A stretch of 35,862 nt of DNA from a virus, in the IMG/VR virus record IMGVR_UViG_3300047496_000075, positions 1 through 35,862 of that record; one strand, given 5' to 3'. How positions within the stretch are numbered: the first letter of the stretch is position 1; the number at the start of each line of letters is the position of its first letter. Under the pieces are notes generated by a model that made no database searches, was not told where the DNA came from, and saw nothing but the letters and a program-made list of their open reading frames with translations. Shown here piece by piece: positions 713-33,316 of this stretch. The translations under genes were made by a program, and so were the position numbers.

Positions 713-2737
713 TTACCCTCTATCTACCGCTGCCGAATTGTTCGGAGTTGGCTGAGGTATATTTTGTGGCGCACTAGCCTGTATTTGCGCTTCAGGATTT
801 AGTGCGGCCTCATTAGCTTTTATTAAATGCGATAATTCTATAAGCTTTCGAACAGATGATATATCAATATCTTCGATTTCCTTTAATGCTTTAACCATAT
901 CCAAGAAGCCCGATTCATGATCTTTTATTGCAGCTGCTCTGCGCTCTACTGCCAATGCTTTATTCTCTTCAACCCTACTATAGCGCTCAACACCCAATCC
1001 TTCGTCCGCCGTAGCCCTAGCCTTAGCTAGATCAATGCGTGATTGAAGTTCAGCCATTTGTAATTGTTGTTGTTGTTGTTGCATTTGCTCTTGTTGCTGT
1101 TGTTTCTTTTGGATAACTTCAATGAGCTTCTTCTTATCTTGAATAGTTGCAGCTTCCAATAAGTATTCATCCGGAATGGGAACTCCAGCTTCAGTTCTAA
1201 GTTGTAATACTTGAGCAAAATTCATCTGCTTCTGGGTATCAGTATTTAAACCCTCAGAAACAACAATATTATATTTACCAAAAGCCTTGTTATAAAACTG
1301 CGGCGCTGGCTCTTGGCCTTCTAAAATATTCTTTATCTTTCCTGGAGTGAAGTTAGCTTGAATTAAATCCAGCATTATTTCACCAATAAGCTTCTGTGAT
1401 AAATCCAATTGGTCAAATAATTTCTGTAAAGTAGTAATAGAAGCAGACATTTTCAATGCAGCATGGTATCCAGATAGTGTTTCCTTGTTATCCATAGCAA
1501 GCATTTCATCAGAGACACATGATATTTCCTGTATCTCGCGAGCTAATATATTTGATAGTTCTATTGTTGATTGTGGAATTTGTGGAGATTGTATTTGTTG
1601 AACATCGGTCATATTGGCTTCTGTTTTGATAGATAGAACTCTACCTTGACCAGAAAGATCCCATGCATCCTTTGGATTAACCAGAGAGTTTTCCTTGATA
1701 ATCCAACCAGAGTTGACTTGAGATTCTAAGATATCTAATTCAATTGCCTTGCGTCTATTATATAGGAACTGAGCATCTCTAAGCCCGCGCACAACGCCCT
1801 GTATTCTTTGTGGGAAATACGGCATCTCTGGTGTGTAATAAGTTAATATTGGCACCAAAGGATATCTATCAATTCCCATTGGGTTTCCAGCATCATAGAA
1901 AACTTTGCCTTGAATAACGATAGCGAGTTTCACTGTTGGTATATCTTGTTCTATCATACTCACTTGTGGATAAGTCTTTAAGAATTGCTGTAAGCGCTCA
2001 TCATTATCAACTTTCCAGTCAAATGTCTCACCAGTCTCAGCGTCTACCAACATCTTTTGTTTTCTAAAATCTCTATACCAGTAGTTGTCATAAGTTAGTA
2101 GATTATTGTAGGAGTAGGAGTAGCTTTCAGGCATGAATTGGAACTTACCATCTCTAGCCATGCCGCTATCATTACCCTGTAATCCCAGTATTTCATCAGT
2201 TCTATCCGGCATTAAAGATATAATTTCCTTTTTTGTTAAGAAACTACGCTTCCAGATAAAATTACAATCTGACATATCAGCTTTTCTAAAATATGGATCT
2301 ACCAGAAAGCCATTATATGGAACTTTGTCGGCCCTAATGTTTCCATTAACTGGATCATTTCTATAATCCATCCATAATTCAACAAAGCTCATTCCAGTGA
2401 TTAATGAACTCTCAAAGGCATCAGATATTGTATGGAGTATATTATCGCGCTCGCAGGCCCACATCAATACTTTTGTTAATTGATCAGAGGTTTCATTGTC
2501 AGCATTTTCTCTAGGAGTAGTAGTAATAGACTTTCTATTTTTGCGCTGATGTCCAGTCATAACATTTATATTACGGCGGATACGATTGAATCCAAATTGC
2601 CTGCGTCTATTGGCTGGAAGATTGCCATAAAGATCATTCCATAGTGTTTGATCTCCACTATAGAATCTTAAATCAGTATCGGCCTCAGACCAATAAGATT
2701 GATTGATTGTTATACCCTCAGCGTATGCAGCTTCCAT
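713..2737 (-). CDS. Portal protein (putative)
   Basis: 674-aa ORF just downstream of terL on the same strand. It has a coiled-coil, poly-Q C-terminal region. The frame stays open upstream to an AAGGAG (2811..2806) plus an in-frame ATT (2800). Confidence 0.65.
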   Translation of the reverse strand: MEAAYAEGITINQSYWSEADTDLRFYSGDQTLWNDLYGNLPANRRRQFGFNRIRRNINVMTGHQRKNRKSITTTPRENADNETSDQLTKVLMWACERDNILHTISDAFESSLITGMSFVELWMDYRNDPVNGNIRADKVPYNGFLVDPYFRKADMSDCNFIWKRSFLTKKEIISLMPDRTDEILGLQGNDSGMARDGKFQFMPESYSYSYNNLLTYDNYWYRDFRKQKMLVDAETGETFDWKVDNDERLQQFLKTYPQVSMIEQDIPTVKLAIVIQGKVFYDAGNPMGIDRYPLVPILTYYTPEMPYFPQRIQGVVRGLRDAQFLYNRRKAIELDILESQVNSGWIIKENSLVNPKDAWDLSGQGRVLSIKTEANMTDVQQIQSPQIPQSTIELSNILAREIQEISCVSDEMLAMDNKETLSGYHAALKMSASITTLQKLFDQLDLSQKLIGEIMLDLIQANFTPGKIKNILEGQEPAPQFYNKAFGKYNIVVSEGLNTDTQKQMNFAQVLQLRTEAGVPIPDEYLLEAATIQDKKKLIEVIQKKQQQQEQMQQQQQQLQMAELQSRIDLAKARATADEGLGVERYSRVEENKALAVERRAAAIKDHESGFLDMVKALKEIEDIDISSVRKLIELSHLIKANEAALNPEAQIQASAPQNIPQPTPNNSAAVDRG

Positions 2738-2873
2738 GCGTGCTAGTAGGGGTTTATCGCGCTCTGAATAGTATGTTGGGCCTAGGGCTGGGAATATAAT
2801 ACTCTCTCCTTCACTAGTTACATTTTTTATCTAGTCTAGGACTACAAAGATATCATATCAAGAAGATTATATT

Positions 2874-3089
2874 TTAACACCCACAAAAGCAGCCTAAGCA
2901 AAGGCCCATTATTTCATTTTCATCAAAGAATATAAAAGTAGCTAAATTACTACAACAAAGACAGGTAACTAAATTCTCATCCTCGATATAAAAATCATCA
3001 ATCACAACATCTTCGTCATAATCATAGTGAAAAGATATTGTATTGGAAATATTTAACAACAAAAGAGATAGTAAAAGTTTTTTAAACAT
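2874..3089 (-). CDS. Small protein with hydrophobic N-terminus and Cys-rich C-terminus
   Basis: 71-aa ORF with MFKKLLLSLLLLNI leader and a ...CLCCSN...CLGCFCGC tail. Confidence 0.4.
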   Translation of the reverse strand: MFKKLLLSLLLLNISNTISFHYDYDEDVVIDDFYIEDENLVTCLCCSNLATFIFFDENEIMGLCLGCFCGC

Positions 3090-3152
3090 AAATCACCTGT
3101 AAAGATATAGATTAACATATATATTTTATCTATTTTTACAGATATAATCCAT

Positions 3153-3320
3153 CTATTTTTTATAACTTTCTAAACATATTTGTTGCCATTTATAAACGCG
3201 CATTTTTCTAAGTTGTTTTTGGGTCATTTTAAGATATTGCTTGATTAGTATTCTAAGTTCTTCTTGGTTTTCTTCAAGCTGTCTAATTTGATGTTCAATT
3301 CGCTCATGGCTCGTCATCAT
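3153..3320 (-). CDS. Small coiled-coil hypothetical protein (55 aa)
   Basis: ATG overlaps the TGA of the upstream ORF (ATGA at 3320..3317). Manual translation gives MMTSHERIEHQIRQLEENQEEL... Confidence 0.4.
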   Translation of the reverse strand: MMTSHERIEHQIRQLEENQEELRILIKQYLKMTQKQLRKMRVYKWQQICLESYKK

Positions 3321-3529
3321 GATACTATCTCCTCTTTATTATTTCTAATATTCTCTTGAATAGTAACTAAATCGTTTAAGAAGTGCTTATACTGTTCATC
3401 ATCAAGCATCTTCTTCATTATCTTTTTGTAGTCACTAATAGTCATACTCACCCTAGTAATAGTTTTTGGATTTTTACTATGTGCGCCTGTAGTTTCAAAT
3501 AATATAGAATGCTGAATGAATTTAGACAT
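3317..3529 (-). CDS. Hypothetical protein (70 aa)
   Basis: ORF track; same strand as the flanking late genes. Confidence 0.5.
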   Translation of the reverse strand: MSKFIQHSILFETTGAHSKNPKTITRVSMTISDYKKIMKKMLDDEQYKHFLNDLVTIQENIRNNKEEIVS

Positions 3530-3642
3530 ATTTACCTTATTACATAAAAATTTGCTAGTATAATGATTCTTATTTTCAAAATTACTACATTATGAAAACA
3601 ATGTATTTACTTATTTTTATTTTTGGAGATAAGGTTAATATA

Positions 3643-3702
3643 ATCACGAATGAGGACAGAAAGATATAAGACAGTAGGGAAGAGAAGAACCTCATTCGTG
3701 AT
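3643..3702. other. Perfect 13-bp inverted repeat (ATCACGAATGAGG ... CCTCATTCGTGAT) with a 34-nt loop
   Basis: Read directly; lies in the intergenic region just downstream of terL. Confidence 0.5.
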
Positions 3703-3736
3703 CATACATAGATAACCAATGTGAGTATATAATTAA

Positions 3737-5905
3737 TTAGTAATTTGGTAAATCATTTCTAAAGAACTGTGGCATATTTTGTTCGCCATAAATAGCCTCT
3801 CTCTTCATCTTATCAAAATCATTTGATGACATAGAATCTTTTGTCTTAGGTAAAGCTATACATAAGTATCTCATTGCGTCACTATTGCTAACAATTGCGC
3901 CATTTGCTAAAGAAAAATGTCCAGATATTGGCACATTAATACACCACACTTCATGCATTCCCTCTAGTTTTTCTATTTTTTCTACCATAAGATGCTTTGC
4001 AGTTTGGGTGGCAGAACTTTTGGGAATTATTTTTTCTTTGCAAAAGCATAGCTTGCTTTCCACAGAACAAACATTCTCCAATGATTCTAATTTGTTTTTC
4101 CCAACTTTTAATTCGGATTGCATGTTCACTGTGCCATCTTCTTCCAGCTTCACTTCCATGCCATTTAATAGCGGCCTCTCTTGCCTTTTGGCTGAATCCC
4201 TTGTTATTTGGTTTAGGCATTTTTCTATGCTCTCTGGCAGGAAAGCAAACAAGGTTTGAAAGCTTGTTGTTATCTGTGTTACTATCTTTGTGATGAATGT
4301 GGCAATCTGTCGGAATATTACCATAGGCTGAACTCCAGACTTCACGGTGTAACCTTGATCCGAAAGTTCTGTTATAGTATTTTGTTCCTCGATTTTTATA
4401 TATTTTGTTATTAAATGTTTGCGTTGAAACATGTTCGACGATAGGATCTGCGATCCGGATTTCAGGTTCTCTGCAGATATCCATCCTGACTCCGTCAAGA
4501 ATAAATGATCCGGCGTACATCTCACTTTTACACCATCTACAAAAACCACCTGAACTAAGTTCGCATTCTTTCTCATGCTCTTTGAGCCTATGCACTTTTC
4601 CCATCCATTCGCAGTAAGAATCTCTTCATTATCCCTAATACTTATTATAGGACGCATCCCGCTACGCGTCAATACCATTGTATCATGGGCAAAGCAAAAA
4701 TGGCTAAATTTATCGTGTAGTGGATGCGGCTTGTATATTTGTTTTTTGGAATCCCATTCTTGCCTATAGTTTTCAAGAGCCTTGATTAATGGCTTGCAAT
4801 TGTTTTTGTCTATCCAGACTTTATCTAGAGTGGATCTAACAGCCTCAATTCCGTCCACTATTGAAAGATCTGGCGCTATTGTGAAGTCTATGCCTAACTG
4901 CCTAGCTTTCTCAATCCTGGTCAGTCCTGATCCCCATTCTTGAACCTTTACGTCATGTGGTGCTATGAATTTACCATAAAGGTAAGGTTTATTGCGAATT
5001 ACTTGTACATAGTGCTCAAGTCCAACTTTAGAATTCTCATATGTATCAATTATTCTTATTGTTTGACCTATATTCTGAAAGAATATAAGACATGTCGAAT
5101 CTCTCACACCGATATCTATAGCCACATGAACTTTAAACGCTGACTCCCAGTTAACATCTCCAATTTGATTTTTAACTCGCATTTTATCGATATATTTAGC
5201 ATAATATGCACCTTCAACACCCATATCAAAACTGGTATAAAACTCCTGCATAGCAAAGTCTTCAGATATTAGACCCTCAGATATCTCTTTTTGTATTTGA
5301 TGTGGTGTTATATGATCTGTGTCTAGAATTGTTAATTTAGATGCGAACCAATTCTCTGGATTATTAATTGCTATTTGATAGAGCTCCCATAAATGATTCT
5401 TGCCACGAGGCGTTGAAATAAACAATGACCAACCATCATTGCCAAGTAGAATAGGGCGTAGGAATTTATATGCTTGTGGATCTTGTAAGGCATACTCAGA
5501 GAATATAATCCCAATTGGATTAGAACCCATAAGTGAATCTATGTTATCACTCCCGACCAATTGGATTAAAGATCCATTGGTTAATGTGATTTTCATTTGT
5601 TGACTATTAGATGATTGTATTAATTCTTGTGGAATGTAATCAAGAAATCTCACACCTTCAGTTGTAATGGAATCCCATATTACTTTGCGAGCTTGAGAAT
5701 ATTCTGGGAAGACATAATAATATACACCTATCTTGCGTAGAGCTTGCCTTAATAATAGATTAAAAGCACAAACGTCTTTGCCTGCTCTGCGGGGCCAAAT
5801 ACACAGTAGGCGCTTATATTTACCAGATTCTAATGCATGACAAAGTGGGAGCTGGTATGGCCTTGGATGGAAGCGATTAAGATGTATTTTTGTTTCAATC
5901 TTCAT
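3737..5905 (-). CDS. terL: Terminase large subunit, intein-containing precursor (722 aa; 451 aa after splicing)
   Basis: Walker A-like PRRAGKD and Walker B-like IGIIFSEY. The nuclease-domain motif HDKFSHF|SDAMRYL is restored when aa 404-674 are removed. Confidence 0.88.
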   Translation of the reverse strand: MKIETKIHLNRFHPRPYQLPLCHALESGKYKRLLCIWPRRAGKDVCAFNLLLRQALRKIGVYYYVFPEYSQARKVIWDSITTEGVRFLDYIPQELIQSSNSQQMKITLTNGSLIQLVGSDNIDSLMGSNPIGIIFSEYALQDPQAYKFLRPILLGNDGWSLFISTPRGKNHLWELYQIAINNPENWFASKLTILDTDHITPHQIQKEISEGLISEDFAMQEFYTSFDMGVEGAYYAKYIDKMRVKNQIGDVNWESAFKVHVAIDIGVRDSTCLIFFQNIGQTIRIIDTYENSKVGLEHYVQVIRNKPYLYGKFIAPHDVKVQEWGSGLTRIEKARQLGIDFTIAPDLSIVDGIEAVRSTLDKVWIDKNNCKPLIKALENYRQEWDSKKQIYKPHPLHDKFSHFCFAHDTMVLTRSGMRPIISIRDNEEILTANGWEKCIGSKSMRKNANLVQVVFVDGVKVRCTPDHLFLTESGWISAENLKSGSQILSSNMFQRKHLITKYIKIEEQNTITELSDQGYTVKSGVQPMVIFRQIATFITKIVTQITTSFQTLFAFLPESIEKCLNQITRDSAKRQERPLLNGMEVKLEEDGTVNMQSELKVGKNKLESLENVCSVESKLCFCKEKIIPKSSATQTAKHLMVEKIEKLEGMHEVWCINVPISGHFSLANGAIVSNSDAMRYLCIALPKTKDSMSSNDFDKMKREAIYGEQNMPQFFRNDLPNY
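3884..4696 (-). mobile_element. Intein in terL (Cys404..Asn674, +1 Ser675)
   Basis: Block A CFAHDTMVLT, block B CTPDHLFLT, blocks F/G VWCINVPISGHFSLANGAIVSN|S. Codon positions were checked against the nucleotides. Confidence 0.8.
3951..4604 (-). CDS. HNH homing endonuclease, nested inside the intein but in a different frame from terL
   Basis: LHREVW..GNIPTDCHIHHKDSNTDNNKLSNLVCFPAREH forms the H-N-H core. The C-terminus has CLFCGK...FCHPNC zinc-ribbon-like Cys pairs. The frame offset from terL is 2. The true start may be internal (M29). Confidence 0.72.
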   Translation of the reverse strand: MGKVHRLKEHEKECELSSGGFCRWCKSEMYAGSFILDGVRMDICREPEIRIADPIVEHVSTQTFNNKIYKNRGTKYYNRTFGSRLHREVWSSAYGNIPTDCHIHHKDSNTDNNKLSNLVCFPAREHRKMPKPNNKGFSQKAREAAIKWHGSEAGRRWHSEHAIRIKSWEKQIRIIGECLFCGKQAMLLQRKNNSQKFCHPNCKASYGRKNRKTRGNA

Positions 5906-11831: not shown

Positions 11832-12215
11832 ATGGAATTAGAACTATTAGAAATTGATGCGGCAGCAGACAATTTATTTAAAAAATTAGATATCGTAAAT
11901 GAGTTAATAAAAGCCACAGAAAATAAACTTGAAAAAATTGGATTTGAATATGAGATATATACTAATCAAATTAATGGATCTGGTTCCTGGATATACATTG
12001 GCTGGGTATATAATCCAGATCAAAGAAAAAATAGATTATGCATTATAAATAAATCACCTACAGGAAGAAACGAAGGATCGCGTCCATTTTTAGAATGTAA
12101 ATTAGATGAAAGATTGAAATATATCGAATTTATTCCTATGTTTTTAGCGGAATTTAGAAAATTTATAATAGATAAAACCCATGCTGTGGATAACGCTATA
12201 TTTGGAATGGATTAA
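11832..12215 (+). CDS. Hypothetical protein (127 aa)
   Basis: ORF track; first long gene of the plus-strand operon. Confidence 0.6.
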   Translation: MELELLEIDAAADNLFKKLDIVNELIKATENKLEKIGFEYEIYTNQINGSGSWIYIGWVYNPDQRKNRLCIINKSPTGRNEGSRPFLECKLDERLKYIEFIPMFLAEFRKFIIDKTHAVDNAIFGMD

Positions 12216-29303: not shown

Positions 29304-30464
29304 TTATAGACCGCCGTAAGTAGATTTACCCGCTACCCAATATATGGTATCTGCTACAGAACTAGTTGTAGTTCCGGCAGGTCCAATTATTGGTGTTCCA
29401 GATAATAATCCATTACCACCTGACCCTAAAATCATTCCTAAGTAACCAGCGTTAACAGTTGAATCAGATAAAATACCTGTGTTGGTACTAAATATCTGTA
29501 ATCCACCATTTAAAGGAACTTGAGGATTTAGATTTACTAAAGCATTGGCAGTATCTTCACCCACTGGATTAAAGTGAGGGAAAGAAGATGGCTGTTGTGC
29601 AATAGTAGGCCATGCAAATGCTGTGTAAGCACTTGTATCTATATTAATTACAAAGTTATAAGCATCAGTAACACTTAATACTGTCGCAGTTTGACCATTC
29701 AATTGAGTCATGCCGGTTACCGGAACTAAGTTAGGTATTTCAAACCTAATTAGTTGGCCAGCGCATAGATTATGTTCAACTGAAGTAGAAACTGTTGGAG
29801 TAGTTGCTTGTGTAACTTTAACTACATAACGACGACGAGGATAGAATAGAGGATTGGTATTAACAATTCTATAGAATCCAGCGCCACCTATTGCTCCAGG
29901 AGCAGTAGCTAATACGTTAGTAGCTGTTAATAAAGTAAAGCTAGTGTTAGCAGTAACTGCACCAACTACCATGTCAATACCATTAACATCTGTTTGGGCA
30001 GTATTACTCATACGAACAACTGTACCAACAGATATACCTGTAGTATCTCCAGTGCTAACAACAGGCTGTGTAGCATTAGTAGAAGCAGTTGTTGCAACAG
30101 CAGCTCCTAATATTGGTTGCGCACCTAGTGTTTGCCCGGATGGATCATAAAGCGTAAATCCACCGGATTGTAATGTATCAAATCCAACTGAAGGAGTGTT
30201 TGTGGCATTGCGATATTTTACAATACCGGTACCCACAGCCATTCCACGTTGCCAATAGAATTCAGCACCAATTGCGGCATTACCTGTGCCTTGGAATGTA
30301 GCGGTACTTGTACCTGCTTTTCCAAATTGAGTATAGTTGTACACCTTCAACCAATCAGCACCAGAAGGTATCTGAATGATTGTAGGAGCTGCAGCAGTTA
30401 TAGTTCCAGTAGCATTCACTAGATTAGCTAGAAAACTACCTTGTCCGATTATAGTTCCGTCCAT
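29304..30464 (-). CDS. Capsid-associated protein (386 aa) with two copies of the shared beta-barrel-like module
   Basis: Start moved to the ATG at 30464, which is preceded by an AGGAG overlapping the capsid stop. Modules are GISVGTVVRMSN..VNGIDMVVGAV and HNLCAGQLIRFEIPN..GMTQLNGQTATVLSV. Confidence 0.6.
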   Translation of the reverse strand: MDGTIIGQGSFLANLVNATGTITAAAPTIIQIPSGADWLKVYNYTQFGKAGTSTATFQGTGNAAIGAEFYWQRGMAVGTGIVKYRNATNTPSVGFDTLQSGGFTLYDPSGQTLGAQPILGAAVATTASTNATQPVVSTGDTTGISVGTVVRMSNTAQTDVNGIDMVVGAVTANTSFTLLTATNVLATAPGAIGGAGFYRIVNTNPLFYPRRRYVVKVTQATTPTVSTSVEHNLCAGQLIRFEIPNLVPVTGMTQLNGQTATVLSVTDAYNFVINIDTSAYTAFAWPTIAQQPSSFPHFNPVGEDTANALVNLNPQVPLNGGLQIFSTNTGILSDSTVNAGYLGMILGSGGNGLLSGTPIIGPAGTTTSSVADTIYWVAGKSTYGGL

Positions 30465-30472
30465 TGTATCTC

Positions 30473-30988
30473 CTAAGCTAATGTAGCGCGTAAATTGATT
30501 ACCCAAAGGTCATTAGTGATCCTTGGAACTTCCGCAAATTTATAACCAACTGAAGCATTTAATGCTAAAGGTCCGTCATATATTGGTGGTCTATATATAA
30601 AAGACGCACTGTATCCGTCTTGTTCTATACAAGCATAAGCTTCCATACCAACGCAGAATATATTGTATACTGTTGCGCCTAATGAAGAAGCATTTAAACT
30701 TGTTGAACCAATACTGGAAATCAAGAATCTCAAGTTGCCAATAGCACCCCATTCTGAACGCAAGGCATTCATAGGAGCTGGATATTGGTTCTTTTGAATG
30801 AATCCAGCAACGTTATCCAAGTTTCCGGTTAAGTTTGTTGAACATAATGCAAAATATGCATCACGAACAGGCGCTGTACCGAATTTATCTTCACCTTCAA
30901 TGTTATCCATGATTGTATATGCATTATTATTCAATAAAGCACGAACAACTGTATCAACATCGGTTCTGGTTATTTCTGTAGGAACGTC
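30473..30988 (-). CDS. Major capsid protein, exon 4 (DVPTEITRTD...RATLA*)
   Basis: In frame with exon 3 once intron 3 is removed. The C-terminal pattern resembles HK97-fold capsid proteins of the N4 gp56 type. Confidence 0.75.
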   Translation of the reverse strand, partial: DVPTEITRTDVDTVVRALLNNNAYTIMDNIEGEDKFGTAPVRDAYFALCSTNLTGNLDNVAGFIQKNQYPAPMNALRSEWGAIGNLRFLISSIGSTSLNASSLGATVYNIFCVGMEAYACIEQDGYSASFIYRPPIYDGPLALNASVGYKFAEVPRITNDLWVINLRATLA

Positions 30989-31002
30989 CAATCTATTACT
31001 TT

Positions 31003-31031
31003 TTGACTTAAATTTATATATTTGTTATCAT
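31003..31031 (+). promoter_or_regulatory. Sigma70-like promoter TTGACT-17 nt-TATCAT, ending 6 nt (31032..31037) before the LAGLIDADG ATG
   Basis: Read directly. There is no Shine-Dalgarno between the -10 and the ATG, which suggests a leaderless mRNA. Confidence 0.35.
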
Positions 31032-31037
31032 ATAATT

Positions 31038-31955
31038 ATGAAACAAATTACTACAAATACCGATCTTGCATATTTCGCTGGTTACATTGATGGAGATGGA
31101 TGTTTTTATATTGGTAAATATATCGATAAGAAAACCAAGCGCATTAAATATCAATCCAGACTTATTATATCTTCTACAAATAGAGATATTTTTAAGCATT
31201 TTAAAACTTTGTATGGTGGAATTATTAGAATGTCCGATAATAGGATTAAATATCCAGGACAAAAACCACAATATCAATTTATAATTTCTGGAAATTCTGC
31301 TAGTAAAATTACTGATAAAATAACAAATATTTTGCATGAAAAACGATTCCAGGCCGACTTTTTTGTAAAGTTTAGCAATACAAAAAGCAAATCCCAAAAA
31401 GATTATTTTATTGATCTTTTTCATGATATTAAAGAACATTTTTATGTTTCTAAAGATAGAATATATCTTATTAAGAACGGTTCTTATCGCATAACTCCCA
31501 AAGAAGAAGACTATGCCTATCTTGCTGGATTTATAGATGCTGAATGCTCTTTGGGTATACAACATTATAAACCGAAAAATAAACCCAATCAGGTTTATAA
31601 AATTTACCTGAAATGCAATAACACTCAATCTCCAATTTTTCATTGGCTTTACGAAAGATTCGGTGGTCAGTTGCAATTTATAAATCGAAACAATAAAAAT
31701 ATTAATCATAAAGACCAGATAATGTGGACCCTCAGCGGAAAAGCTCTTTCTCAAATACTTCCATACATTTTTAAATATATCCAATATAAAAAACCAGTTT
31801 GCGAACAACTCATGAAATTCGATGCCACTACTCTTAAAAATGGCGGCGCAAGACACACGGAAAAATTCCGGGAATCCTATGCTAAAATTATTAAAGAGCG
31901 AGAATTGATTATTCATGAAGTCCATCGTCTCAACAAAAAAGGTATTCCAATTTAA
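31038..31955 (+). CDS. Double-motif LAGLIDADG homing endonuclease (305 aa)
   Basis: LAYFAGYIDGDGCF and YAYLAGFIDAECSL motifs. The start is set at the first Met after the antisense capsid exon. Confidence 0.85.
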   Translation: MKQITTNTDLAYFAGYIDGDGCFYIGKYIDKKTKRIKYQSRLIISSTNRDIFKHFKTLYGGIIRMSDNRIKYPGQKPQYQFIISGNSASKITDKITNILHEKRFQADFFVKFSNTKSKSQKDYFIDLFHDIKEHFYVSKDRIYLIKNGSYRITPKEEDYAYLAGFIDAECSLGIQHYKPKNKPNQVYKIYLKCNNTQSPIFHWLYERFGGQLQFINRNNKNINHKDQIMWTLSGKALSQILPYIFKYIQYKKPVCEQLMKFDATTLKNGGARHTEKFRESYAKIIKERELIIHEVHRLNKKGIPI

Positions 31956-32138
31956 GCGGGTAGTCATTTCTGCTACCTCTCATACTTATCGCATGAGGCT
32001 CGACTATCGCATCCTCAATAGAGGTCTTCTTGTTTAGTCTGTCAGGCTGTATTTAAACTTGCCCCTTGTTGCCGGTTAGCTTATTGCCACTTCGGGTTCC
32101 AAGTCAATTAAAGAAGATTTTAAAACGGCAACATTTCT

Positions 32139-32417
32139 ACCGTTTACACCACCGGTGCAATTTATAAACGCAGCAGTAGCGGCCAACATGTCTCTTGTTA
32201 ACTGATCCTCTGTTTGTCTTAAACTTACACCTAATCTAGCCGCACATTCATTAAGAACAGGGTCTTGGTTTTGCAGGGTTACTTGTTCATTCAATTGAAC
32301 GTATGTCCCATAAAAACTAATTTTAGCATCAATATCAACAGCTGTTAAATTCTGAGCAGGAGGAGTTACACCAGTATTACCTAGAGGCACCATTGCTGTA
32401 TTTAACGGGTTATATCT
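32139..32417 (-). CDS. Major capsid protein, exon 3 (RYNPLNTAMVPLGNTGVTPP...CTGGVNG)
   Basis: 93 codons; boundaries fixed by the P1 helix and the terminal G of intron 2. Confidence 0.75.
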
Positions 32418-32810
32418 CATTTTTTGTTACTATTTGAAATTTATTCAAACGGGAATGCCTATTGCACATTCCTCACTGTGTTTCCACAATGTTCAGAGCA
32501 CCGCATCACTTTTCAGTGTTTTCTCGCTTGCTACGTTCAGGCTGATCGGGTATTAATTTAGTCCATGAATTATTTTTATATTTTTTCATCCAAATAGTAT
32601 CGCTATCAGTATTTATCCAAAATGCTGTATCTACTAAATCCAATTTATCATTTGAATTTGGATTTCTTTTGGATATTATCGTATTACTTGGAATATAATC
32701 ACATTTTTTATTAAACCAATTAATCATAATCTTGCCCCTTGTTGTCTACGACTTTACGTTTAGAGTTCCAAGTCTATCAGAGAAAATTTTAAATGCGCAG
32801 ATTTTTGTTT
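32418..32810 (-). mobile_element. Group I intron 2 of the capsid gene (393 nt)
   Basis: P1 pairs AAUGCGU (32817..32811) with GCGCAUU (32798..32792), ending in U.G. The intron ends ...AAAAUG. It shares 65-nt and 60-nt blocks identically with intron 1. Confidence 0.72.
32506..32727 (-). CDS. Intron 2 ORF (73 aa), no recognisable endonuclease motif
   Basis: Starts 7 nt after the AAGGGG of the intron core. The last 12 codons (QPERSKRENTEK) are encoded by conserved intron core sequence. Confidence 0.5.
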   Translation of the reverse strand: MINWFNKKCDYIPSNTIISKRNPNSNDKLDLVDTAFWINTDSDTIWMKKYKNNSWTKLIPDQPERSKRENTEK

Positions 32811-32927
32811 ACGCATTCTTAAAGTTGTTCCACCATTCCTTGGCATGTTTTTTTTCATAGCCGGAATTTTGTGGATCATATTAGGAACCGGGACTGATAA
32901 AAGCTTATAACTAAAGCTTTGTTGTAC
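32811..32927 (-). CDS. Major capsid protein, exon 2 (VQQSFSYKLL...GGTTLRMR)
   Basis: 39 codons found by manual translation between introns 1 and 2. Confidence 0.7.
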
Positions 32928-33280
32928 CATTCTGTTACTTTTGTGACCTATTTCTAGGCGAGGAAGCCTATTGCACTTCCCTCATTGCATTTCTACAATG
33001 TTCAGAGCACCGCATCACTTTTCAGTGTTTTCTCGCTTGCTACGTTCAGGCTGAAGAAAATCATTTAAAAATGCTTTATAATCAACTTGATATAATCCCT
33101 CACAGAATTCGCAAACAATATGATGATAATCATCTATATTAAATGCCTTTCCGTCTACAAAATATACCTTATCACATCGTTCACATTTATATTGATTCAT
33201 AATCTTGCCCCTTGTTGTCTACGACTTTACGTTTAGAGTTCCAAGTCTATCAGAGAAAATTTAACGCGCCCATACATTTT
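32928..33280 (-). mobile_element. Group I intron 1 of the capsid gene (353 nt)
   Basis: P1 pairs GCGCCU (33286..33281) with GGGCGC (33271..33266), ending in U.G. The intron ends ...AGAAUG. Confidence 0.7.
33015..33200 (-). CDS. Intron 1 ORF (61 aa), zinc-ribbon-like (CERC...CEFC)
   Basis: Same insertion point and same 12-aa C-terminal tail as the intron 2 ORF. Confidence 0.5.
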   Translation of the reverse strand: MNQYKCERCDKVYFVDGKAFNIDDYHHIVCEFCEGLYQVDYKAFLNDFLQPERSKRENTEK

Positions 33281-33316
33281 AGGCGCCGGAAGAGTCGAGG
33301 TTGTTGTAATTGCCAT
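33281..33316 (-). CDS. Major capsid protein, exon 1 (MAITTTSTLPAP)
   Basis: The ATG at 33316 is preceded by AAGGAG with a 6-nt spacer. Confidence 0.65.

Follow-up and report, generated by a model that had tools for sequence, protein, structure and literature searches.

Mobile group I introns with endonuclease genes are known from several protein genes of phages, among them td of T4 with I-TevI, the SPO1 intron with I-HmuI, and orf142 of Twort with its three introns. In G+C-rich genomes, long antisense ORFs in codon register with a gene arise as a passive by-product of the genome-wide rarity of TTA, CTA and TCA. Leader peptides and the coupling of translation to transcription against Rho polarity provide examples of translated ORFs with an irrelevant product; these are short and do not overlap other genes. 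Endonuclease genes antisense to their intron have been described for group I introns of nuclear rDNA, such as I-DirII of Didymium and the L2066 introns (PMC3073962, PMC9548176). In phages, the ShiLan domain and other HNH insertions lie out-of-frame within methylase genes (PMC11855218).

We analysed a window of 35,862 nt, positions 1 to 35,862 of the IMG/VR virus record IMGVR_UViG_3300047496_000075. The major capsid gene on its minus strand is split into four exons by three related introns:

33281..33316, minus strand: capsid exon 1, MAITTTSTLPAP, preceded by AAGGAG
32928..33280, minus strand: predicted group I intron A, 353 nt, with a 61-aa sense ORF (33015..33200) in the P6 loop
32811..32927, minus strand: capsid exon 2, VQQSFSYKLL...TLRMR
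32418..32810, minus strand: predicted group I intron B, 393 nt, related to intron C, with a 73-aa sense ORF (32506..32727) in the P6 loop
32139..32417, minus strand: capsid exon 3, RYNPL...NCTGGVNG
30989..32138, minus strand: predicted group I intron C, 1150 nt, the third of the three, ending with G at 30989
30476..30988, minus strand: capsid exon 4, DVPTEITR...RATLA, with the stop codon at 30473..30475

Intron C carries a LAGLIDADG endonuclease gene on the opposite strand, and across this gene the intron-sense strand contains a long stop-free frame, here called the mirror ORF. The locus resembles the known phage mobile introns (PMC3073962) in that a group I intron resides in an essential phage gene and has an endonuclease cassette in one of its peripheral loops, the exon frame soon meets a stop within the intron, intron-containing and intron-free alleles coexist, and several related introns occur in one gene. 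It differs from them by the antisense orientation of the endonuclease gene, which has its own promoter and probably a leaderless start, by the stop-free in-register frame on the intron-sense strand, and by a ribozyme that is not detected by Rfam models. The rDNA introns share the endonuclease gene opposite to the intron strand with its own promoter, but they belong to eukaryotic hosts and interrupt untranslated rRNA which no ribosome transits, and no mirror ORF has been reported for them. ShiLan is also a homing element in phage whose endonuclease gene is overlapped by a second stop-free frame of the host transcript. In ShiLan, however, the two frames share one strand, a search for a ribozyme was negative and the insertion is presumed to be translated within the host protein, whereas here the frames are antisense, the insert sits in a group I fold and the mirror product lies outside the capsid protein. 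Our literature search found antisense endonuclease genes only in eukaryotic rDNA introns (PMC3073962, PMC9548176), and no account of a mirror frame conserved opposite such a gene. The locus represents a new form of mobile group I intron whose mechanism can be tested directly.

No Rfam group I model matched in the window (gathering threshold; E ≤ 10 around the locus) or in 20 related loci. Probably the loop inserts are too large and the core, which lacks P2, is too compact, an explanation which is untested. The fold was established by covariation instead, using 26 aligned sequences homologous to the 5′ part of intron C. It consists of P1, P3, P4, P5, P5a, P6, P7 crossing P3, P8, P9 and P9.1. 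For the ten helices tested, 96.9% of the cells in the alignment are paired and 39 of 53 pairs are compensatory. None of 500 shuffles matched the real value, and slid controls reached 33–50%, which demonstrates the group I fold. All 26 sequences have the U.G pair at the 5′ splice site, P1 has compensatory changes, and in P7 the pairing ACUA/UAGU alternates with AGCA/UGCU. The P1 pairings of the three window introns are ATGCGT/GCGCAT, GCGCCT/GGGCGC and AACGGT/GCCGTT. A terminal G closes all three of them as well as every aligned 3′ end.

The splice junctions of introns A and B, which are about 90% identical outside their ORFs, were confirmed by an allele without these introns (L001), and that of intron C by alleles uninterrupted at this site. 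The spliced 315-aa capsid product can be aligned with uninterrupted capsid proteins from cultured phages over 93–98% of its length. By the U.G pair, core topology, terminal G and frame-restoring junctions, A, B and C thus qualify as predicted group I introns; self-splicing is inferred. In intron C, helices P1–P9.1 occupy about 32138..31958 and form a compact core of ~180 nt. They are followed by the P9.2 stem, in which 31957..31949 pairs with 31014..31006, and the endonuclease cassette is contained in the loop of this 3′-terminal hairpin.

The features of the cassette on the plus strand are as follows:

31003..31031, plus strand: sigma-70-like promoter of the endonuclease gene, with TTGACT (31003-31008), a 17-nt spacer and the TG-extended TATCAT (31026-31031)
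31038..31955, plus strand: double-motif LAGLIDADG homing endonuclease gene, 305 codons, stop codon TAA at 31953-31955, antisense to intron C

The encoded protein contains the motifs LAYFAGYIDGDG and YLAGFIDAEC and has profile matches to Pfam LAGLIDADG_1 (PF00961, 1.8e-10), phrog_5046 (3.5e-37) and I-MsoI (9.6e-14). Residues G19, D20, G21, D167, A168 and E169 are invariant in the endonuclease family (36 sequences). On the basis of sequence alone, the predicted product is a LAGLIDADG homing endonuclease, an I-CreI/I-MsoI-like double-motif monomer, for which DNA cleavage is inferred. Signs of homing are visible, as site 144/145 is occupied in some alleles and empty in others and the family occurs at several capsid sites. 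A megablast search of the region against cultured phages gave no match, and a protein search with the endonuclease matched only distant endonucleases of Streptomyces phages. Through its −35 element, the promoter shares sequence with the 3′ strand of P9.2. Only 6 nt separate its end from the ATG at 31038, so that the endonuclease mRNA is predicted to be leaderless. Of 72 homologues, 46 have the same promoter layout and only four an SD-like motif.

On the minus strand, the original prediction had described an ORF of 317 codons in exact register with the LAGLIDADG gene, bracketing it closely and preceded by GAGG 8 nt upstream of its ATG. Both elements are present, the latter as GAGAGG:

31014..31967, minus strand: mirror ORF, 317 codons, ATG start, in codon register with the antisense LAGLIDADG gene
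31976..31981, minus strand: SD-like GAGAGG, 8 nt upstream of the mirror ATG (31967..31965)

The mirror ORF is oriented in the sense of intron C and the capsid gene. It extends 12 nt beyond the endonuclease stop codon and 24 nt beyond its ATG, and one triplet partition serves both ORFs (31965 − 31038 = 927 = 3 × 309). In such an in-register antisense frame, stops can arise only at TTA, CTA and TCA, all of which can be removed synonymously without changing the endonuclease. In the other antisense frames, synonymous changes would not suffice to remove all stops, and this accounts for the exact register. That TTA, CTA and TCA are absent from all 305 codons of the gene, as had been claimed, is borne out by the codon counts. 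The 18 Leu codons are CTT (9), TTG (5), CTC (3) and CTG (1), with no TTA or CTA, and the 17 Ser codons are TCT (9), TCC (4), AGC (3) and AGT (1), with no TCA. Other A-ending codons are plentiful (ATA 10, GGA 7, CCA 6, AAA 34). The contrast with neighbouring genes, for which ATGGAATTAGAACTATTA at 11832 had been given as an example and is indeed present there, was also found: in 33 other ORFs of the window, TTA and CTA together make up 59% of the Leu codons and TCA 30% of the Ser codons. Each of these ORFs has 33–125 codons per 1000 that read as stops in its mirror frame (mirror stops), and the longest mirror-open run in ten large genes is 26–102 codons.

A codon-usage test had been proposed as a check, with the expectation from the gene's own, foreign codon usage as the outcome that would refute the claim. 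We calculated the probability of an open mirror frame under four null models. It is 2.6e-10 under the codon usage of the window, 9e-9 under that of a free-standing homologue (L084, see below), 2.1e-7 under the position-specific base composition of the LAGLIDADG gene itself, and 6e-7 under the usage pooled from endonuclease genes that lie in sense orientation within the same capsid genes. The open frame is not due to chance. The LAGLIDADG gene is richer in A+T than its surroundings (30% versus about 38% G+C), so a foreign origin is possible, and the open frame might be seen as an artefact of foreign or gene-specific codon usage, mutation bias, tRNA supply or shared ancestry. However, a higher A+T content should raise the number of TTA, CTA and TCA codons and not eliminate them, and the null model based on the gene's own composition already gives the low value quoted above.

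The comparison with homologous endonuclease genes, the other check proposed, gave a corresponding picture: antisense intron-borne copies avoid TTA, CTA and TCA. The endonuclease family comprises 393 proteins at E ≤ 1e-5, and searches with the endonuclease as seed recovered 89 loci, those with the capsid protein 80. Among them are 72 unique intron-borne coding sequences, all antisense to a capsid gene and with 29–61% identity to the endonuclease gene of the window. In 71 of the 72, mirror stops occur only in the last 11 codons or fewer or in the first ~20 codons. These edge stops fall outside the mirror ORF, those in the last codons being upstream of the mirror ATG. The remaining sequence (L040) has mirror stops up to codon 63; its 333-codon start call is probably too far upstream. 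As the homologues share descent, raw numbers exceed the count of independent events. Open antisense ORFs occur at seven or more capsid insertion sites and in several LAGLIDADG lineages of 139–310 aa.

Within the family, TTA (2%), CTA (1%) and TCA (1%) are rare compared with ATA (25%), ACA (32%), GCA (28%), GGA (49%) and CCA (40%); A-ending codons of the other four-fold families make up 15–49%. Conserved Leu columns switch among CTT, TTG, CTC and CTG but never to TTA or CTA. This extensive synonymous turnover speaks against shared ancestry as the cause of the open frame.

Three controls bear on the same point. The first is internal. Of the conserved Leu codons, only Leu298 precedes the mirror start, lying two codons before the ATG that is commonest in this role, and here TTA or CTA is used in 21 of 62 cases, compared with 29 of 1648 elsewhere. 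The same genes thus do carry these codons where they lie outside the mirror ORF. The second control is L084, a free-standing homologue whose neighbours are a serine recombinase gene and a HicAB pair and which is not close to any capsid gene. Of its 296 codons, 21 are mirror stops. Its nearest relatives (49–55% identity) are all intron-borne and have none, which indicates that the constraint was lost on leaving the intron. We sought a free-standing clade around L084 to widen this control, but none was found and L084 remains a single escaped copy.

The third control is orientation. Every LAGLIDADG ORF inside these capsid genes was surveyed, with the following result for unique ORFs:

sense LAGLIDADG ORFs, n = 6: 7–22 interior mirror stops in each
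antisense LAGLIDADG ORFs, n = 77: no interior mirror stops
antisense LAGLIDADG ORFs, n = 2: one or two interior mirror stops
antisense LAGLIDADG ORFs, n = 10: three to nine interior mirror stops

That all six sense genes are among the closed ones has a hypergeometric P of about 1e-5 when phylogeny is ignored. Mirror stops make up a normal 4–7% in the controls (L084, the six sense genes and Leu298), so both the free-standing and the sense-oriented relatives use TTA, CTA and TCA at ordinary rates. The four null models together with these three controls lead us to reject codon bias or foreign origin as an explanation, to which we give next to no weight. They demonstrate selection for the open frame and its dependence on orientation and context. 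The frame relation is the same as in the antisense ORFs of G+C-rich genomes, with stops only as complements of TTA, CTA and TCA. In contrast to that case, the genome and the gene family studied here use the three codons heavily, and they are missing only in the mirror ORF of antisense intron-borne copies.

A frame of this length, kept open in relatives and equipped with start signals, could be taken for genuine dual coding, with the mirror ORF encoding a functional protein of ~300 aa; this had been suggested as one of two hypotheses for the region. We find it very unlikely. For pairs with less than 50% endonuclease identity, the mirror products are 0.255–0.271 identical, compared with 0.253–0.260 when synonymous codons are redrawn, and at columns where the amino acid is shared, the codons are identical at a rate of 0.529 (0.505 expected). 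The conservation of the mirror product is therefore that expected from a synonymous redraw. It has no match in Pfam or PHROG, and its richness in F, I, N and K is the expected complement of a gene rich in K, N, I and F. Starts and stops vary, with lengths of 141–577 codons if fusions to capsid exons are included. Purifying selection at the amino acid level is not supported for the mirror product: openness is kept, the sequence is not. The comparison thus shows a product free of constraint, and the dual-coding hypothesis fails on this evidence.

The frame does not continue that of the upstream exon either. This possibility was rejected because the exon frame stops 15–21 codons into the introns of the window. 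From exon 3 it enters intron C for 21 codons and ends at TAA (32078..32076), and in 12 other loci the exon frame likewise ends before the mirror ORF.

The start signals differ in detail between the window and most of its relatives. In five cases, the window and four relatives, the open frame extends slightly further upstream and starts at an ATG (31967..31965 in the window) located in the conserved P9.1 loop CAGAAATGA, with GAGAGG 8 nt before it. The commonest start of the family is found further downstream:

31923..31925, minus strand: in-frame ATG, codon 15 of the mirror ORF, antisense to the CAT that encodes the conserved His296

His296 is encoded by CAT in 55 cases and by CAC in three. GAGG, AAGG or GGAG stands 8–9 nt before this commonest ATG and is formed by the antisense of the C-terminal Asn-Leu/Ser-Lys-Gly codons. 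Asn299 is encoded by AAC in 65% (31% elsewhere), and residue 300, if Leu, by CTC in 15 of 27 cases (13% elsewhere); together the biased codons at these two positions yield GAGG 8–9 nt before the ATG. These data demonstrate start signals for the mirror frame. In the window itself, the family-typical ATG (31925..31923) has no well-spaced SD. The GAGAGG of its first ATG provides the 3′ strand of P9 as well as the initial pairs of P9.1, and is thus base-paired in the folded ribozyme. Both points count against the interpretation preferred below.

The mirror ORF of the window terminates with TAA (31016..31014) within the 3′ strand of P9.2. In most homologues the frame ends shortly past the endonuclease ATG, and in 24 of 72 it crosses the 3′ splice site and continues, in frame, in the capsid exon that follows. 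A selected fusion to the downstream exon was considered and is unsupported, as 24 of 72 corresponds to the chance rate of about one-third for the frame. Read-through at chance rate suggests that the position of the mirror stop is not selected.

The preferred interpretation is that the mirror frame is held open by purifying selection on synonymous codons of the endonuclease gene to allow ribosome transit, the product being irrelevant. We put its probability at about 0.55. The first of the two hypotheses for the region had been of this kind, namely that the frame is kept open so that ribosomes can cover the intron insert. It is favoured by the comparison, since the frame is open in ~80 diverged antisense homologues and closed in sense-oriented and free-standing ones, and since an ATG is present, usually with an SD-like motif made from biased codons, while TTA and CTA are free to occur at the upstream Leu298. 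Translation of the mirror frame and the reason for its benefit are inferred; there is no Ribo-seq or other direct evidence. For ribosome occupancy and a downstream effect the evidence is indirect only, consisting of the orientation and context dependence, the start signals and the unselected product.

The late capsid transcript would be read on the minus strand, and ribosomes translating exon 3 would halt at the TAA 21 codons into intron C. The ~180-nt core (P1–P9.1) would come next, followed by the antisense copy of the endonuclease gene, an A+U-rich and otherwise untranslated insert of roughly 0.9 kb. The SD and ATG at the top of this antisense stretch may load ribosomes, which would then terminate within the 3′ strand of P9.2, 25 nt short of the 3′ splice site; in one-third of the related lineages they would pass on, in frame, to the next exon. 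Such ribosome cover may preserve synthesis or stability of the pre-mRNA and of the downstream late genes by blocking premature termination or endonuclease attack until splicing has occurred. The endonuclease itself would be made from its own promoter on the opposite strand, probably via a leaderless mRNA. The logic proposed here, selection on the act of translation and not on the peptide, is that of leader peptides and similar ORFs; unlike these, the mirror ORF has ~300 codons and lies wholly in the synonymous sites of a gene on the opposite strand. Rho-dependent polarity had been named as an example of what ribosomes might prevent. The mirror RNA consists of 70% A+U, 14% C and 16% G and is thus not C-rich and G-poor, which is atypical for Rho loading, so that involvement of Rho should not be assumed.

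Alternatively, the frame may be translated for a benefit other than transcript protection, which we regard as possible but doubtful. The same comparative evidence for a translated, product-neutral frame applies to this explanation, of which three variants can be envisaged. Ribosomes might act as a splicing chaperone or timer, preventing the 0.9-kb insert from mispairing with the folded core or from using cryptic 3′ splice sites. They might keep the 5′ strand of P9.2 from pairing with the 3′ strand until the transcript has been completed. Finally, they might block formation of double-stranded RNA with the complementary endonuclease mRNA, which could lead to RNase III cleavage or silencing of the endonuclease. 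The entire catalytic core precedes the insert in intron C, the mirror start overlaps P9/P9.1 and the mirror stop overlaps the 3′ strand of P9.2. A complementary mRNA arises only with antisense genes, in agreement with the orientation dependence. In phages, splicing of group I introns is known to benefit when the exon upstream is translated (PMC3073962). On the other hand, the q117/118 inserts are open although they precede most of the core, with distances of about 85 nt to the 5′ splice site and about 180 nt to the 3′ one, so that a rationale based on premature reaction is not universal. Splicing and double-stranded RNA effects are without measurements.

One antisense lineage also stands against these variants, as it does against the preferred interpretation. 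Nine of the ten closed antisense genes (L001, L110, L127, L134, L138, L141, L142, L159 and L166) belong to a single lineage of 142–177 aa at capsid site q88-98, with 4–9 interior mirror stops. Their endonuclease genes sit mid-intron. This lineage indicates that an open mirror frame, or ribosome cover, is not obligatory for every antisense insert. The rule that the frame is open if the insert lies outside the core and closed if it lies inside was considered and does not hold cleanly, since the q117/118 inserts are open.

Returning to transit of ribosomes as the preferred reading, we think it rather probable that, beyond this single locus, phage group I introns with a backwards endonuclease gene have repeatedly evolved, and maintained in the long term, frames of ~150–570 codons without meaning as protein, which are written in synonymous sites and selected only for being traversed by ribosomes. 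If true, this would be a new kind of overlapping ORF and direct evolutionary evidence that long untranslated inserts in bacterial and phage mRNAs are strongly counter-selected. Cases in which synonymous codons of one gene are selected to keep the opposite strand translatable are rare, and this one has clean controls of both kinds, internal and external, and is directly testable. The result would bear on the old question of how self-splicing introns of highly expressed genes can contain kilobase inserts despite the coupling of transcription, translation and splicing in bacteria and phages. The known architectures of mobile introns would be extended by an antisense, promoter-bearing and probably leaderless endonuclease cassette. 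For annotation, the locus is a warning that an ORF of 300 codons with SD and ATG, conserved as open in many genomes, may lack a functional protein.

Capsid genes of this phage group are hot spots for compact, predicted group I introns that are missed by Rfam. The group is uncultured and abundant, with 453 capsid relatives in IMG/VR.

On the minus strand of the window, a single capsid gene holds three related group I introns, at 30989..33280. Among relatives, introns are found at no fewer than nine different sites in this gene:

q24/25, 88-98, 99-107, 117/118, 144-146, 162-165, 183, 214-231 and 279-291: intron insertion sites in the capsid genes of relatives

Genomes of 35-41 kb characterise the uncultured, abundant phage group of which this phage is a member, and IMG/VR contains 453 capsid relatives; identity of the capsid protein to that of any cultured phage is only about 25%. 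Binning has placed contigs of the group in MAGs from phyla that are not related to each other (Parachlamydiaceae, Patescibacteria, Methanobacterium); this placement is probably artefactual.

The ribozyme of the capsid introns is compact (about 235 nt excluding inserts), lacks P2 and was not detected by Rfam. One element is kept in most site-1 introns:

31959..31977, minus strand: P9.1 hairpin loop CAGAAATGA

In these introns the loop is conserved regardless of whether its ATG falls in the mirror frame, the stop-free minus-strand frame in codon register with the endonuclease gene. This conservation pattern points to a role of the loop in a tertiary RNA contact, not to its use as a start codon.

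The endonuclease gene itself, antisense to the capsid gene, is preceded by its own promoter:

31003..31038, plus strand: sigma-70-like promoter of the endonuclease gene

Its -10 element ends 6 nt upstream of the ATG and the gene has no SD sequence, so that the mRNA is predicted, from sequence alone, to be leaderless and to be transcribed in the direction opposite to the late capsid transcript, head-on with it. The same promoter layout is present in 46 of the 72 intron-borne homologues, and at two different intron sites.

In about one-third of the lineages (L002 and 23 others), the mirror ORF stays in frame across the 3' splice site and ends only where the capsid gene ends:

2425..3846 of locus L002: mirror ORF continuing into the capsid exon

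If translated without splicing, RNA of these lineages would give a fusion of a junk peptide with the capsid protein's C-terminal half, a product which is apparently not counter-selected.

One single endonuclease homologue and one lineage do not follow the open-mirror-frame rule:

1895..2785 of GTDB contig CAZJSX010000100.1 (L084): free-standing endonuclease homologue
4465..4995 of L001, also in L110, L127, L134, L138, L141, L142, L159 and L166: short antisense LAGLIDADG lineage at capsid site q88-98

The L084 gene, flanked by a serine recombinase upstream and a HicA/HicB pair downstream, is a family member that has left the phage intron setting. Neither the open mirror frame nor the leaderless promoter layout has been retained in it. 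The short q88-98 genes lie in mid-intron and have mirror stops at normal density, an exception that remains unexplained.

The other two introns, A and B, carry small ORFs in the sense orientation:

33015..33200, minus strand: intron A ORF, 61 residues with two CxxC pairs, in the P6 loop
32506..32727, minus strand: intron B ORF, 73 residues, in the P6 loop

Both extend through P6', P7, P3' and P8, and their shared C-terminal end QPERSKRENTEK is encoded by the conserved ribozyme core. An 87-residue ORF in L001 resembles them. One possibility is that these ORFs are what remains of an endonuclease gene; another is that they serve as short spacers that are translated.

Downstream of the capsid gene follows a 400-residue ORF with weak matches to E1_FCCH and phrog_584:

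30462..30506, minus strand: start region of the ORF for a tail or Ig-like protein

The listed start is a TTG overlapping the capsid gene. Because of the comparison with L001, ATG 30464 (MDGTII...), 9 nt past the capsid stop codon, is more likely to be the true start.
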